A stretch of DNA of 63,337 nt, the filler included, from Reclinomonas americana ATCC 50394 (taxonomy: Eukaryota), in the NCBI GenBank assembly GCA_048213135.1. It is 4 parts of 3 records of this genome, joined end to end, with 100 filler letters (N's around TTAATTAATTAA, not from the genome) between each part and the next. Parts side by side here need not be neighbours in the genome. Positions count along the whole stretch, not along the records: positions 25,913 to 44,234 come from PS015601.1; 3 more parts are not named here. One strand, written 5' to 3'. A model generated the notes under the pieces. It was given only the letters and a program-made list of their open reading frames with translations, had not been told where the DNA came from and ran no database searches. Position numbers and translations under genes: made by a program. Below, one piece after another: positions 25,857 to 59,101 of the stretch (the stretch's first letter is position 1; each line of letters starts with the position of its first letter).

Positions 25857-25868
25857 TTAATTAATTAA
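25857..25868. other. Artificial contig-joining spacer (six-frame stop linker)
   Basis: TTAATTAATTAA flanked by 44 N on each side; genes on both sides are truncated while pointing into it. Confidence 0.95.
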
Positions 25869-26102: not shown

Positions 26103-26721
26103 CATAATAGGGCTCCGTCTCATCGGCGTCTCCGCGATCGTACATTACATAGTTCTTGAATCGGCGCCACCACTTGATGTCAAGCACAAACCACTTGGCG
26201 CCAATCTGCAAAAACAACAAAACAAACACATGAGACAACCTGGCAGAGAGAAACACGCTCACACAGAGAGAGAGGAACACACAAACACGCGCGCGCGGAC
26301 AGTAAAAGTGACGCAACATAAAAAAGACAACTCCCATGCACAACAAGCAAGACAGACAGGAGAGGCACATGCACATAGGCAGAGAGAGACACACAACGAG
26401 ACAAGACAAGAGAGGGGCGCGCGGAAGAGAAGAAGAGCGTGCGTAATGAACCGACATGACAACCACCTCAAACACACACACACACTTTCTTCTCGCTCAC
26501 ACCTCCATCTGCGTAAACGCAATCAAGCGGCGAATCTCACGTCGCTGCTCCCAAATCGGCGGCACCACCACATCCTCCTCTTCCTCTGCCTCTGCTTCTT
26601 GCGCAGGCACCGAAATGTCCGCGCCCCCGTCCTCCACATTCCCCGCCTCCTCAACCACCGCCGGCTGCTGCTGCTCAGCTGCATCTGCGTCCATTGCCGC
26701 TGTGTGACCGTCGTCGCTCAT
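26103..26721 (-). CDS. N-terminal exons of a DUSP-domain ubiquitin-specific protease (USP4/11/15-like); truncated by the contig end
   Basis: Exons 26721-26503 and 26205-26103 give EQRREIRRLIAFTQME|IGAKWFVLDIKWWRRFKNYVMYD, matching the DUSP pattern G.xWyL....Ww..wk.YV.yD. Confidence 0.75.
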
Positions 26722-26826
26722 GGTTTACACAACACAAAAAAACAAACACAACGCGCGGGATGGACGGAAATAGCCGTGGGACATACGCGCTCGCTCTGTC
26801 CGCGTTTGTCGGCTATTGTCTCATTC

Positions 26827-27310
26827 ATGGCGTCGGCTGCGCCTCCCGCGTCGCCCACTGTTGCGTCTCTCTCTCTTTCTCACACACACAGTGTGTTCTT
26901 CTCTGCGTGTGCTCTTCTTGTGTGTTTGTGTTGTGAGCGAGTCGGTCAGTTTGTTGTGTGTCATGGCGCGCGCAACTCTCTCTTGTGCAGTTCGTGTGTG
27001 TGTGTTGCTTGATGGTGTTTGTGTGCGTGTGTGTGCGCGTGTGTGAGACGCAAAGAGTGAGAACGTGCACACGAGCGCGTACACGCACACGCGTGCGGGC
27101 GGCCATTTCCTGCTTTCTGTTATGCTGGTTTTTCCCCCGTCTTCTCTGTGTCATGGCGTGTGAATGTGCATGACACTCTCTCTCTTTTGCGCGCGCGCGG
27201 AGTTGAGCATGTTGAGTGTGAGAGAGAGAGACACTGGTGCAACTTGTTTCTCCGAACGCACGCGAGTCGCGATATCACGCACTTCTGTGAAGAGAGTGGC
27301 GTGCTTGTGA

Positions 27311-27353
<43 letters not shown>

Positions 27354-27380
27354 GAGAGACNNNNNNNNNNNNNNNNNNNN

Positions 27381-27422
<42 letters not shown>

Positions 27423-28706
27423 GGAGAGCAATGGAGGCTATTCCCCCGTGACACGCGAGTCGCGATATCAGACTCTTCACTCGTGCTCTCTCGCTCTTTC
27501 ACACGTACTCAAGCACTGAGAGAAGGAGAGAATGAGAGAGCTCTCACCCGCAGAGGCACACAGGGAGTCGCACCAACACACCCACTCATGCGTCCTTTGT
27601 TGATAGACTCGCGCGATTTGTGATATCATGTACTCTCTCTTCTCCCTCTCACACCCTCCTTCTCCTCCCTCGATCAAACTCACTGAGTGCGACACCCACC
27701 CATGCGGCCTTTGTTGATAGACTCGCGCGATTTGTGATATCATGTACTCTCTCTCCACTCTCTCGCACCCTCCTCTCCTCCTCCCTCGATCAAACACACT
27801 GAGTGCAACACCTACACACCCCCCTGTTGGCTGTCACGTGCGATCCGTCTTTCTGTCTGTCCCTCTCGCTCACATGGTGATCTTGCAGGGCGCTGGTCGC
27901 CACCGCGAAGACATCAACTTCATTCCGGATTATGCGCTGGTGTTTCCAAACCCAGGTTTGTGTGTCATGACTCTTTTGTAATGGATAGATGCCTCCCTGT
28001 ATCTCTCTCCCTCTCTCTCTCGCTGCGCGTGCATGTGTGTATTTGTGCGTGCGTGTGTGCGTATGTGTGTGCGTGTGTCTCCTCCCCCCTCTCACGGCTT
28101 CCTTCTCTACACCCATCCATTCTTTCGCGCTTTCTTTCTCGCTTTCCCTCTCACCTCCCTCCCTCCTCTCTCTCTCTCTCTGGTTATCCGCCATGTGCCT
28201 CTCTTATCACCTTCTGCTATTCTTTCTCTTCACTGTGGCTCTGTGTCCTCCCTTCCTCATTTCTCTCTCTCCCTTGCCCCCATCCACAGAGCACCCCCGC
28301 GTAAAGGGCAGTGCCAAGGCCGACCTCCCGGAAGCGCTCAACAACTACCGCATGCGCATGCGCGATGCCGGTCTCGATGTGTCGCAGCAGTACAGTGCCG
28401 ACAATGACGAGCTGTTCCTCCTCGGTGAGCACTCTCTTTGAACTCCTATCCACGCGCTTCGCTCACCTTGTCCTCTTGCGCAGTCGGCGCCTCGGATCGC
28501 GTGCTCGAGCAATTCGCCGACAAGCTGAAGATTGTCATGGAGACCACGCGTGGTGGTTTCCAGCCTTTTGAACTGAAGAAGGCCGACGAGTACAGAATGG
28601 AGGATCGCAACAATCACCGCCGCTTCGGACCGTCGACTCGTTGCGTCGGCGTGCTGTGTGACATGCTTTTCCCCTCTGCTCCAGAATGTGGCATTGACAT
28701 GACTCG

Positions 28707-28770
<64 letters not shown>

Positions 28771-29277
28771 CGCGACGCCGTCGTACGTACGTTACCGACT
28801 ACTCCTACCTACCTACCGAACGACGCGTCGGTACGGTCGGACGGACGGGACGGGACGGACGGTACGGACGCGGCCGTCCGTCGGTCGCGTCNNNNNNNNN
28901 NNNNNNNNNNNNNNNNNNNNNNNNNNNNNNNNNNNNNNNNNNNNNNNNNNNNNNNNNNNNNNNNNNNNNNNNNNNNNNNNNNNNNNNNNNNNNNNNNNNN
29001 NNNNNNNNNNNNNNNNNNNNNNNNNNNNNNNNNNNNNNNNNNNNNNNNNNNNNNNNNNNNNNNNNNNNNNNNNNNNNNNNNNNNNNNNNNNNNNNNNNNN
29101 NNNNNNNNNNNNNNNNNNNNNNNNNNNNNNNNNNNNNNNNNNNNNNNNNNNNNNNNNNNNNNNNNNNNNNNNNNNNNNNNGGCGTCGTCGTTGGTCGTAC
29201 GTAGTGTTTACCCGTTTCCCTTCCGTTCTCCTCCGAACGTAACGTAGGTCGGACGTAGTACGACTAGTCGTACGTAC

Positions 29278-29342
<65 letters not shown>

Positions 29343-32333
29343 CAGCGCCTGATTTACCGCATCCTCACCTCCAAGAGCTCGAGTGGACGCGAGGGCGACG
29401 TGAGCGCGCTCCGTGGCTGCGGCTTCAGTGCGTTTTTTAGCCAGCCCATTGTCTTGGTCCACACACACACACACACACACATGTCACTCACTTCCTTGCG
29501 TGATCAACAGAGTTCCGCAGCATGGTGAAGAACGGATTGCTGGTCAAGTTCTTCCCACTGCACGAGCGCACGGAGAAGAACAATCTGGAAGCCGACTGGG
29601 CGTCCATGAAGAAACTGTTTTCGCGTCAGCCGCTGGATCGCATTCGCCGCTACTACGGTTCCGTCGTATATTCGTCCCTCCGCTTTGCACCCTAACCTAT
29701 GTGATGGCTGACCGTGGTAATGTCGCGTGCAGGCGAAAAGATCGCCATGTACTTTGCCTGGGTCGGCCACTACACGCAAGCACTGATTTTGCCGGCCATT
29801 CTGGGTCTCATTGTGGGCATTTTCGGTGTCTCGCGGCGCGATGCCGATGGCCAGTTTGAGTGGGATAACGTGCTCACGCCGATTTACACGCTGTTTATGA
29901 TTTTGTGGGGTGCGTGGTACTCTTGACGACTTTGCAGAGCAGGCAGTGGACTGCTTGTATGCTCATGTTTTGACTCGCCACAGGTACCATTTGGAACGAG
30001 CTCTCCAAGCGCAATCTCAACACACTTGCCGCGCAGTGGGGCATGACTGACTTTGAGGAGACGGTTTGTGTGTGCGGGGGGATTGTGTTGCGCGCGTATC
30101 TAGAGCATCGTGCTGAACGCCATGTATGCGTGCGCACAGGAACGCGTCCGCGATTCGTTCCAGTCCGTCAAGCGCAAGGTAGTCATCATTCCGGATCGGA
30201 ACATTTACGAACTGCAGGTGCCGGTGCGTGTGCGCAACATCAACGGCGTCTACTACGAGCGCTACTTCCCGACAACGGCCCGCTGGCGCCGTTTCCTATG
30301 CACATTCCCCGTGGTGCTGTTGATGGTGCGTTGCTGCTGTAGGGCACGTGCTTTTTTTAATTCTGGGGCGCTCACGGAAATGGGGTACCAGTGCGCCGGT
30401 GTCATTATTGCCGTCGTGTTCATCATGCTGTGGCGCGAGAGCCGCATCAAGGATCCCATCATTAGCCCGAACCAGAAGCTGCCGTTCTGGGAGAGTATTG
30501 GATTCTCGGTGCTGATCGCCGCCATTGTGATTATCAGCGGTGTCGTTGCGTCGCCTATCCCGTGCACACGCATTAGAGGGGATGCGAAAGCTGCAGACTC
30601 ACTCGTTTCGGCCTCCAGATTTACAAGGTGGTGGCTCGCATTCTCACCAATCTTGGTGAGTGGAGAGTCTCTCTTCTCACGTCTCCGTGATTTGTGTGAC
30701 TCAAAACAATGATTTCATCTCACAGAGAACCATCGCACGGACACGGAATACGAGGACTCGCTCATTCTCAAGACCTTCTTCTTCCAAGCCGTCAGCAGCT
30801 ACATTGCGCTCTTCTTCCTTGCCTTCCTCACCACTCTCGGTGACTCGACAGTTGCGCCACTCCCCGTTTTTTTCCGACGTAAATCTTGAAGGGCAAGTCT
30901 CTCATTGTGTCTTCTTGATGTCGTGCAGACCAAGATCCGCGAAATGTTCAATCAGTTGCTCGTCATCTTGCTGCTGAAGCAAGTCGTCGGCAACATTCTC
31001 GAGCTGACCATTCCGTTGCGTCGCCTCTTGCGGTAGCCGTACCCACGCTGTTTCTCATGTTCATTCTCGTTTGCATCACCGCAGTTACCTGAAGAAGAAG
31101 TTGTGCTTCTGGCTGGAGCGTCGTCGTGCCAAGAAGGCGACTGGCGACGGCGGCATTCTGCCCAAGTGGGAGGAGGAGTCCAAGATGAGCATGTACGAGA
31201 CACCGTTTGAGGACTACTTGGAGATGTGTTGCGTAACAAGCTGCTGGTGCTCGACTGGATATACTAGAAATTTGTGCAATTCTCACTTGCCATTTTGTGT
31301 TGTGTGCCGTAGGCGTGCAATTCGGTCACATGATGATGGTGAGCGGAACGGAGTATGCAGCACGAACTGTATGAAGGCGTTGAACTCACCTCGCTCTCTC
31401 CGTACATAGTTCGCTCCGGCTTTCCCGTTCGGTCCCACGCTGTCTCTCTTCAACAATGTGGTCGAAATTCGTATCGATGCCATCAAGTTGATGAAGAACT
31501 GCCAGCGGCCGGAGGCTCGTGGCGCTGAGGACATTGGTGCGTGCGAGAGTGGGCCGAAATGGAGGATGTTGCCGTGTGCTCATCATCTATCGTACAGGCA
31601 CATGGCAGCAAGTGCTGGAGGCCATTGTCTTTGTGGCCATTGTCACCACGTCGGGCATTATCTGCTTCACTTCGTCGACACTGTTTGTCAACTACTTCAA
31701 GATCGACGAGAACAACGTGTCGAACTTTGATCGACGACTGGCATTCATCATCATTGAGCACGCTCTCATCGCCATCAACGTGCTGCTGAAGTACTTGATT
31801 CCTGATTTGCCCGGCACGTTGCGTACGACGACAAGGAGGGAGATGGAGAGGTAAAGGGCATTCGACTCATTTCGACTCACACACTCTGTGCATGTCACAG
31901 TGTGCGCAAGTCACTGGCTCTCGACGAGTACGAGCGCAAGCAGGCCTACCTCAAGCAGAATGGCCTCGCCAACGACGACGACGAGGTGGACCCCGACGAC
32001 GAGTTGGAGCAAGGTGCGTAGTAGTAGAAGGGAGAGGAGGTGAAACGAGGGAACAAGCATTCTCACTTGTGCGCACAAACAGTGGCTTACGATTCGAGCA
32101 TCATTTACGGCCCGGTTGGAGGTGCGCCGGTTGGTGGTGCGCCGGCTCCCGGTGGCACTGCACGGCCGCCGTACCGTGGAGAGACCATGGTGCCACAAGC
32201 GGCGCCGACAGCGGCTGCTGTGTATGCTCCAGTTGCGTGGCAGGTTGAGAGAGGAAGAGGGAGAGTGAGGAATGAGAAGGACAGGGAGGGAGAGGGAGAA
32301 GGGAGGACGAGGCAACGCCTCGGCACATATTGA
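26827..32333 (+). CDS. Anoctamin/TMEM16 family protein (short-loop, ANO8/ANO10-like), at least 19 exons; 3' end uncertain
   Basis: Spliced motifs PDYALVF, STRQRLIYRIL, FFPLHE, QPLDRIRRYYGEKIAMYFAW, LTNLENHRTDTEYEDSLILKTF, KQVVGNILE, FEDYLEMCVQFGHMMMFAPAFP, NNVVEIRIDAIKL, QRPEARGAEDIGTW, IIIEH, IPDLP. Putative exon 1 (26827-26859, MASAAPPASPT) is in phase with the exon at 27889. Confidence 0.93.
27550..27815. repeat. Intronic tandem repeat, about 115-nt unit, about 2.3 copies
   Basis: ACACCCAC.CATGCG.CCTTTGTTGATAGACTCGCGCGATTTGTGATATCATGTACTCTCTCT...CCCTCGATCAAAC.CACTGAGTGC occurs twice. Confidence 0.85.
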
Positions 32334-32511
32334 GCGTGAAAGACAGAGAGAGAAGGGAGGGAGAGAGAGACAAGCAATTGCTGAGAGAGAACGAGAGAAG
32401 AGAAGAGGCAAACAATCAGACAGGAAACAATCAGAGTGACGCAGATATTGGGCGTGTGTGAGAGTGTGTGTGTGAGAGAGAGAAAAGGGAAGGCAGAGTA
32501 TGTGTGTGCGT

Positions 32512-32542
<31 letters not shown>

Positions 32543-32656
32543 TAGAAAGAAAGAGACAGGTTAGAAACGAAAACAAGCAGACAGGCAAAGCCAGCGCTCG
32601 TGGACTGGCCGACACGCGGAGACAAATAGAATGACGCAAACATCGCACACATTGAA

Positions 32657-32689
<33 letters not shown>

Positions 32690-33133
32690 GAGTGAGAGAG
32701 AGAGAGAGAACAAATGAGAGTCAGACGGACAGACAGTATCTCAGACTGAGCACACATACACTAAAGGAGAAAAGACCTGCCCGCTGATTCGATGACCGTG
32801 GTGCTGATGTCTAACCAACCGATGTAACATCACAGAGCGGTGCGCAGCCACGACCTCAGACGGACATGCCATACTAAATGGTTGTTGCGGCATGACTCGT
32901 CACCATTTTTGTCGACCCTCTTTTTTCCCCTTCTCTTTTCAGCTTGTTTCGTGGAGTGTGTGGGTGGTGCAGCGTGTTGCCGCTCTCGAGGCACTTGTTT
33001 CCCGTGCTCTCTCTTTTCTCTGTCCTCATTGGTATGTATTGAAGCGGCTGCATGTGTAAAACGAGAAACAACAACTGTCTTCAATGCGCCGCTTCACATC
33101 GCTTGTATCAGTCAGTCAGCGAAAACCAACTTT

Positions 33134-44278: not shown

Positions 44279-44290
44279 TTAATTAATTAA
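44279..44290. other. Artificial contig-joining spacer
   Basis: TTAATTAATTAA between N44 runs. Confidence 0.95.
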
Positions 44291-59089: not shown

Positions 59090-59101
59090 TTAATTAATTA
59101 A
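59090..59101. other. Artificial contig-joining spacer
   Basis: TTAATTAATTAA between N44 runs. Confidence 0.95.

Follow-up and report, generated by a model that had tools for sequence, protein, structure and literature searches.

A U1 register shifted by one base (+1) is known from atypical human 5′ splice sites, as reported by Roca and Krainer in 2009 and described in PMC4856993 and PMC11162779, and shifted U1 registers are also treated in PMC9311317. A standard and a modified U1 existing together are mentioned in passing for Physarum (bioRxiv 10.1101/2022.06.08.495308), and background on the minor splicing system is given in PMC10639083, PMC8329584, PMC11347168 and bioRxiv 10.1101/2020.10.12.336362. 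Here we analysed 63,337 nucleotides of the intron-rich microbial eukaryote Reclinomonas americana ATCC 50394 (assembly GCA_048213135.1), four parts of three records joined end to end and in the following called the window. It carries an anoctamin (TMEM16-family) ion-channel gene in which introns starting with GTTGCG alternate with introns of the usual kind. GTTGCG-type donors are termed class 2 and normal-register donors the normal class; a slash marks the cut, and H stands for a base other than G at position −1. From our results it is probable that GTTGCG marks the start of a predicted second class of introns, which the major spliceosome removes, which a second U1 recognises first and with which U6 pairs one base off its usual register.

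Two donor classes in one anoctamin gene

When the ATG at 26827 and 19 exons were joined over 18 GT-YAG introns, a single open anoctamin reading frame was obtained. All four anoctamin exons tested matched Pfam PF04547 above the cut-off of 28 bits (42.6-56.3 bits), the protein scored 547.8 bits against a profile of homologues, and its closest full-length homologue was 34% identical. The nine donors quoted in the original prediction were all found where it had placed them, and its tally was reproduced in the open frame: seven H/GTTGCG donors (with T, C, C, A, C, T and C at −1, in order), one G/GTTCCGT and ten normal-register donors with G at +5, nine of which follow a G. The acceptors were 16 CAG and two TAG, and hence YAG in 18 of 18. 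Within this one gene the donor class was linked to the −1 base (Fisher p = 4e-4 in the strict count; p = 3e-3 when the donor at 29658 was taken as shifted). The final model contains the following features.

26827..32877, plus strand: anoctamin (TMEM16-family) gene, 20 exons and 19 introns, 762 amino acids
26860..27888, plus strand: intron 1, class 2, T/GTTGCGT, phase 0; unpinned by homology, donor and acceptor conserved in the second copy
28640..29340, plus strand: intron 4, class 2, C/GTTGCGT, phase 1; homology rank 2 by 0.6 bit
29428..29510, plus strand: intron 5, normal register after A (A/GTGCGT), the exception; homology rank 4
29658..29732, plus strand: intron 6, G/GTTCCGT; rank 1, by 8 bits
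30545..30618, plus strand: intron 10, class 2, C/GTTGCGT, phase 0; rank 1; one paralogue also class 2
30851..30928, plus strand: intron 12, class 2, A/GTTGCGC, phase 0; in a variable loop, unpinned, conserved in the second copy
31015..31084, plus strand: intron 13, class 2, C/GTTGCGT, phase 2; rank 1; one paralogue also class 2
31228..31312, plus strand: intron 14, class 2, T/GTTGCGT, phase 1; rank 1; paralogue normal after G
31818..31900, plus strand: intron 17, class 2, C/GTTGCGT, phase 2; rank 1; of the paralogues one class 2, one normal after G
32232..32835, plus strand: intron 19, likely class 2, A/GTTGCGT, phase 0
27956..32082, plus strand: nine normal introns after G (donors 27956, 28425, 29910, 30064, 30326, 30656, 31339, 31537 and 32014); eight of nine rank first

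The donor of intron 6 is class-2-like (T at +3, C at +5, G at +6) though it follows a G, and the second copy has G/GTTTCGT at this place.

The count of 18 introns given by the original prediction held for those 18, which are conserved in a second copy of the gene, but it probably missed a nineteenth. The two copies part just past 32232 and converge again at 32836-32877, the last exon, whose 42 bases are letter-for-letter identical in both, whereas the preceding intron measures 604 bases in one copy and 632 in the other. For this reason the gene most likely has a predicted nineteenth intron at 32232-32835, with an eighth GTTGCG donor; an in-frame G/GTTGAG at 32244 is the weaker option.

Support for the junctions from homology and a second copy

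The alignment of the spliced protein with TMEM16 homologues, proposed as a check by the original prediction, was carried out with a junction profile. For this, 55 of 127 fetched anoctamin-like proteins were used, the gene's own sequence being excluded, and 249 alternative junctions that keep the frame were scored, every GT or GC being allowed as donor and every AG as acceptor. The predicted junction ranked first for 13 of the 18 introns. Among the GTTGCG introns, those at 30545, 31015, 31228 and 31818 ranked first, with margins of 4.7, 6.4, 6.3 and 1.6 bits; that at 28640 came narrowly second, and those at 26860 and 30851 lie in variable regions. The claim that most junctions are pinned by anoctamin motifs therefore stands for the gene as a whole and was overstated for the GTTGCG class, in which homology is firm for four of seven. 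The normal-register exception at 29428 ranked only fourth.

The second anoctamin copy, on G000:C346, is 93% identical and keeps the open frame and 18 of 18 junctions. Between the copies 43 of 2098 exon positions differ, with no gap, compared with 182 of 2153 positions in the intron interiors, where 119 positions are gapped. In the seven GTTGCG donors, none of the 35 positions from +3 to +7 has changed.

Intron 4 (28640-29340) is 701 bases long and contains an assembly gap and noisy-looking sequence. It measures only 81 bases in the second copy, and the 701-base form is therefore probably an assembly artefact. In the assembly, the two haplotypes of the eukaryote stand on contigs of their own.

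Position of the cut

By reading frame alone, a cut at H/GT is not told apart from one behind the G in which the acceptor has moved by one base as well. Prp8 was examined with a profile of 41 homologues; the last two of its ten introns were dropped as poorly aligned, and one more GTTGCG donor is followed by a masked exon. When three GTTGCG introns of Prp8 were cut at H/GT, the junctions yielded Arg, Asn and Thr, the residues found in 32 of 35, 31 of 35 and 34 of 34 homologues, respectively. A slid cut gave Gly, Ser and Ala instead. The predicted cut at H/GT is fixed by these near-invariant residues, decisively so where it can be read.

The real junctions might nevertheless differ, either as G/TTGCG plus an acceptor displaced by one base or as a GC donor three bases downstream. 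Such a difference would agree with the codon-likelihood at class-2 junctions, which was −0.41 and thus lay between the values expected for the unslid (+0.22) and the slid cut (−0.90), and with the loose pinning of three of the seven GTTGCG sites in the anoctamin gene. The shortfall in codon-likelihood came mainly from an excess of T and a scarcity of G at synonymous positions. However, near-invariant Prp8 residues are lost with the slid cut in all three informative introns. The +3 GC donor scored 4.7-6.4 bits lower in the five of seven anoctamin introns where it was listed and would add a residue inside invariant Prp8 segments. We regard these alternative junctions as highly improbable. A stop-codon test of the slid cut offered too few cases (1/61 and 0/128), and one HSP90 junction inspected by eye, A/GTTTCGT, yielded a conserved Ile, which slightly favours the cut at H/GT.

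At phase-2 introns of class 2 the first base of the next exon was T in 17 cases, compared with 7.6 expected from codon use, and G in 12 compared with 23.7 expected.

The GTTGCG class across the genome

A coding model was trained with the anoctamin frame as seed and then with long open frames, and a donor-blind gene finder accepting any GT was run on 60 stretches of the genome (552,338 bases). It predicted 1186 introns, 396 of which passed a fixed filter for flanking coding signal and length. GTTGCG was the commonest donor, found in 61 of the 396 filtered introns as against 0.97% of all GT; outside the window it was found in 56 of 367. Fifty-nine of the 61 GTTGCG donors followed a base other than G, whereas 76 of the 94 GTGCG or GTGAG donors followed a G. 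C was strongly preferred at +5 in class 2 (61 GTTGCG to 5 GTTGAG) compared with the normal class (54 GTGCG to 40 GTGAG; p = 7e-7). In position logos, the class-2 donor appeared as the normal consensus displaced by one base (+1), the exon side included. The observation of two donor classes is real and goes beyond chance.

In a second round of gene models, donors were modelled as two classes, the normal one with a prior for G at −1; this round is not independent of the first result, and the link between class and −1 base is therefore partly built into its counts. GTTNCG donors here made up 161 of 720 introns; they were used by 153 of the 268 introns that follow a non-G base and by 8 of the 452 that follow a G. 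The motif was near-fixed (T at +3 and G at +6, each in 153 of 157), and A stood at −1 in 63 of 153 class-2 donors, where 39 were expected. One pair of alleles had A/GTTGCG and G/GTTGCG, so that a G at −1 is tolerated at times. The two classes resembled each other in the branch motif CTVAY (88 of 125 class-2 and 204 of 287 normal introns), in the median distance from branch to 3′ end (19 nucleotides in both) and in intron length (70 and 68).

Between ten allelic pairs of stretches, 3 of 175 class-2 sites from +3 to +7 differed, as against 6.2% in intron interiors (p = 0.005), and we conclude that these positions of the predicted donors are under purifying selection. For normal-class donors in the same pairs, 10 of 248 differed (p = 0.1). 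An AT-AC version of class 2 was searched for among 678 loose candidates, with no convincing case.

A variant U1 complementary to class 2

Two kinds of U1 gene were found in the genome, a canonical one on contig C343 and a variant beginning ATACGTAACTT on C429 and C479. The latter two are alleles (flank identity 92-97%) and were the only exact matches found. In the Rfam alignment, the 5′ arm of the variant has the canonical length of 11 nucleotides and the substitutions U5G, C8A and G11U; the cloverleaf, the U1-70K and U1A loops, the Sm site and normal folding are kept. Positions in U1, U6 and U6atac follow numbering conventions that we take to be the usual ones. The variant aligned with RF00003 over its full length (E 4e-14), at a score slightly below the gathering cut-off. 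A small nuclear RNA (snRNA) promoter element lies upstream of it at −66, and such an element was found at −62 to −72 in all nine snRNA gene copies with a readable upstream region, that of the canonical U1 being masked. Both kinds of U1 lie on contigs that are rich in both donor motifs and therefore belong to one organism.

The computed duplex energy with class-2 donors was −9.2 kcal/mol for the variant and −1.7 kcal/mol for the canonical U1, and the variant paired better in 70 of 70 cases. With normal donors, the canonical U1 was computed to pair better in 134 of 165, strongly so for GTGAG, and the two tied on GTGCG. In the proposed mechanism, C9 of the variant, normally opposite the last exonic G, would pair with the G at +1, and A8, A7, U6, G5, C4 and A3 would pair with +2 to +7, leaving U10 opposite −1. 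As this shifted register is almost fully Watson-Crick with C9 on the intron, the exon would not need to end in G. The canonical U1 would read the G/GTRAG-type donors, with G/GTGCGT equally paired by both, and the branch site and 3′ end of class-2 introns would be read as usual. The variant U1 is presumably expressed and used in this way.

Could the canonical U1 itself read class 2 in a shifted register, with the variant as a passenger or mere helper? Shifted pairing has been proven in human cells (PMC4856993, PMC11162779), the exon-side bias of class 2 resembles the normal-class bias moved by one base, and GTTGAG donors do exist at a low level, 5 in 396. However, the canonical U1 reaches only the low computed energy given above, and it would favour A at +5, where C dominates. 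The preference for C over A at +5 and the favoured A at −1 therefore set class 2 apart from plain shifted pairing by the canonical U1. In addition, the variant gene has kept its promoter element intact, and each of its three substitutions suits class 2. A canonical U1 acting by itself thus seems unlikely to us, and recognition by the variant U1 is the reading that we prefer.

Class switching among anoctamin paralogues

Eleven intron positions are common to four anoctamin paralogues of 30-49% identity. Since the junctions in the paralogues were predicted in the second round, their −1 link is partly built in, unlike the sharing of positions. Among 29 paralogue intron instances, 14 were class 2, all after non-G, 14 were normal after G and one, at 29428, was normal after A. 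At this last position two paralogues have H/GTTGCG. Both classes occurred at three shared positions (29428, 31228 and 31818), and pairwise alignment added 30326, where the paralogue has T/GTTGCG. For these predicted introns, class is a state of the intron and not the mark of a separate intron family. We infer that the class of an old intron tracks its coding-constrained −1 base and that the gain or loss of one T interconverts the classes. An origin of class-2 introns by recent mass insertion (introners) is unlikely, given positions common to paralogues at 30-49% identity.

U6, U6atac and the minor spliceosome

Class 2 has C at +5 and G at +6 and so lacks the +5 G with which the ACAGA box of U6 pairs in the normal register. 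No variant U6 was found among three pattern matches. U6 most likely pairs with class 2 in the +1 register: at hand-over the ACA of the unmodified U6 would pair with +5 to +7 instead of +4 to +6, while cleavage would stay at GT. A U6 register moved in the other direction (−1) has been proposed for human STAT3 (PMC11162779).

The original prediction had taken the major spliceosome as the probable machinery for both classes, had treated the gene as an internal control for the two and had noted that GTTGCG does not resemble a U12-type donor; it had not pointed to the variant U1 as the likely reader of class 2. Our results support all three points. The classes alternate along the gene and share YAG acceptors, a U2-like branch motif and its distance, and GTTGCG is not of the RTATCCTT type and fails to match the U11 of this genome; the major spliceosome is therefore the best reading. 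The U2 genes carry the usual branch-pairing sequence. A U12-like branch motif was seen in 2 of 153 class-2 and 3 of 372 normal introns. Components and a candidate intron of a minor system were located as follows.

L123:1501-1632 and L124:1501-1630: U6atac of the CC type, two alleles, the only U6atac core in the assembly
L127:1501-1625: U11, canonical
G000:C69:117942 and C74:41446: U12 candidate, by pattern search
G000:C5 near 90000 (L063/L062 boundary), minus strand: textbook-like AT-AC minor intron candidate starting ATATCCTTTT

A conventional minor spliceosome thus appears to be present besides class 2. The family search for U12 and U4atac gave no match, which is not evidence of absence, the U12 candidate having come later by pattern. 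Two sites with a canonical-looking U6atac box were seen, and neither carries the downstream stem pattern.

The U6atac gene offers another route: the variant U1 and ordinary U2 might pass class-2 introns to the CC-type U6atac for catalysis, so that about one fifth of the introns would be removed by a hybrid spliceosome. C14 and G15 of its box are complementary to the G at +6 and the C at +5 of class 2 in the normal register, which would remove the U6 register problem, and a helix I of U6atac with U2 is possible on paper (−7.0 kcal/mol). If true, the hybrid would be a third pre-mRNA splicing route and would give the CC variant of U6atac a use. Yet C13 mismatches the U at +7, the class-2 branch sites are U2-like, and the same intron position switches class among paralogues. 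The CC box is known from Trichoplax, cnidarians, Acanthamoeba, Physarum, moss and oomycetes (PMC2396436); being so widespread among unrelated eukaryotes, it needs no special cause here. U11 is canonical, beginning AAAAAGG and unable to pair with GTTGCG, and the U12 candidate forms a fully compensated helix I with U6atac (−10.3 kcal/mol). We have therefore largely rejected U6atac as a partner of class 2, and such hybrid catalysis is very unlikely.

Some further features of these snRNAs were seen. The U6atac box is also able to fold back on the helix-I strand downstream of it in a hairpin of 4 bp, and the branch-pairing part of the U12 candidate has C for the usual A, which fits CTTGAC-type branch sites. 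The U2 genes are of two divergent types (L075:1501-1699 and L076:1501-1717), with different bulge bases in helix I and the normal branch-pairing sequence in both.

Points against removal by the major spliceosome with a second U1

Several observations weigh against the reading that we prefer. The box is canonical in each of the three U6 copies found and, in the usual register, makes no pair with class 2, and according to PMC11162779 the normal cleavage site is five bases upstream of the U6-paired G. Both points tell against the proposed U6 step. Both U1 genes score slightly below the Rfam gathering cut-off for RF00003 (variant 64 and canonical 63.7, against 69.5 bits). U1C was not matched in the genome search, where short exons are the likely cause, and the U5 snRNA was not found by family or pattern search. 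To these are added the intermediate codon-likelihood and the −1 prior of the second round, both described above.

Two further points concern a pure pairing account. The base at +4 is G rather than the best-pairing A, and G is avoided at −1, as the 8 of 452 G-ending exons with class 2 show, though it could wobble with U10 of the variant. Together with the near-fixed T at +3 and G at +6, this is stricter than base pairing predicts, and would suit a protein (U1C, LUC7 or TIA-1-like) or a U1-independent route that specifies GTTGCG, the variant U1 having come later. Pairing with the variant U1, on the other hand, accounts for −1 and for +1 to +7, no such factor was identified, and U1-70K is present as one locus pair only. 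We think it quite unlikely that a protein or a U1-independent route came first, and retain the two U1s within the major spliceosome.

Neighbouring and assembly observations

About 105 bases before the anoctamin start (window 26720-26827) there is an ATG on the minus strand, which suggests that a divergent gene shares a very short promoter with it; the region is about 350 bases longer in the second copy. At 25857-25868 two runs of N are joined by a short T/A linker, an assembly spacer, and similarly shaped gaps are found at 44279-44290 and 59090-59101. Prp8 contains a probable intein at L091:3-638, with a homing-endonuclease-like part (PF05204, E 4e-4) and an end in His-Asn before Cys. In the cytosolic HSP90 gene at L068:5000-7400, the pieces are mutually inverted across N gaps, as in a mis-oriented scaffold; its best named matches were 88% identical and belonged to several supergroups. 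The stretches G000:C1 (L015), L011 and L090 are gene-dense, repeat-free and bacterial-looking. One candidate pair for U5 was rejected because it is coding sequence.

Comparison with known systems

Our search of the openly accessible literature gave no report of a GTTGCG donor class, nor, in the papers covered, any class of natural targets proven for variant U1 genes. Between the cleavage site and the G that U6 pairs with, the spacing is regarded as almost constant, and here a large share of the introns seems to use a shifted signal. This makes it testable in one organism whether U1 paralogues divide a genome's introns among them, whether U6 routinely pairs in the +1 register and why a G at −1 and the signal in the intron make up for each other. 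GTTGCG donors would be mis-scored by standard gene predictors.

Among the described systems, Physarum polycephalum, with its transformed minor introns (Larue et al., bioRxiv 10.1101/2020.10.12.336362), likewise has a large second class and a co-evolved snRNA. There, as far as that account goes, it is the U12 system that has a changed U12 and branch site, whereas the introns here have branch sites of the U2 type, and a conventional minor system appears to exist separately. The two donor classes defined by U5 loop 1 and the U6 ACAGA box (Parker, Fica and Simpson 2025, PMC11732430) also share one spliceosome and are split by the −1 G. As described, however, these classes use the same register and the same U1, and the non-G class keeps the G at +5, in contrast to the +5 C and +6 G of class 2.

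In Entamoeba and Mastigamoeba balamuthi (Roy and Bowser, bioRxiv 10.1101/2022.06.08.495308), the 5′ arm of U1 is altered to fit an atypical donor, as in the variant here. The change in Mastigamoeba, a G opposite the +4 C of GUGCG, is the same U5G that the variant U1 carries. Those organisms are described with one U1, one consensus and a normal register, whereas R. americana has two U1s and a shifted class tied to the −1 base.

The human shifted-register sites agree with class 2 in having the consensus one base into the intron, cleavage at GT and the major spliceosome. According to the sources cited at the outset they are rare, with all proven non-canonical registers amounting to about 1.5%, and they use the canonical U1 with a mismatch. 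Here the shifted sites make up about one fifth of the predicted introns, and the compensating C8A is found, together with U5G and G11U, in a second U1 gene. What is new in R. americana is most likely that a register rare in human has been made routine and has been given its own U1.

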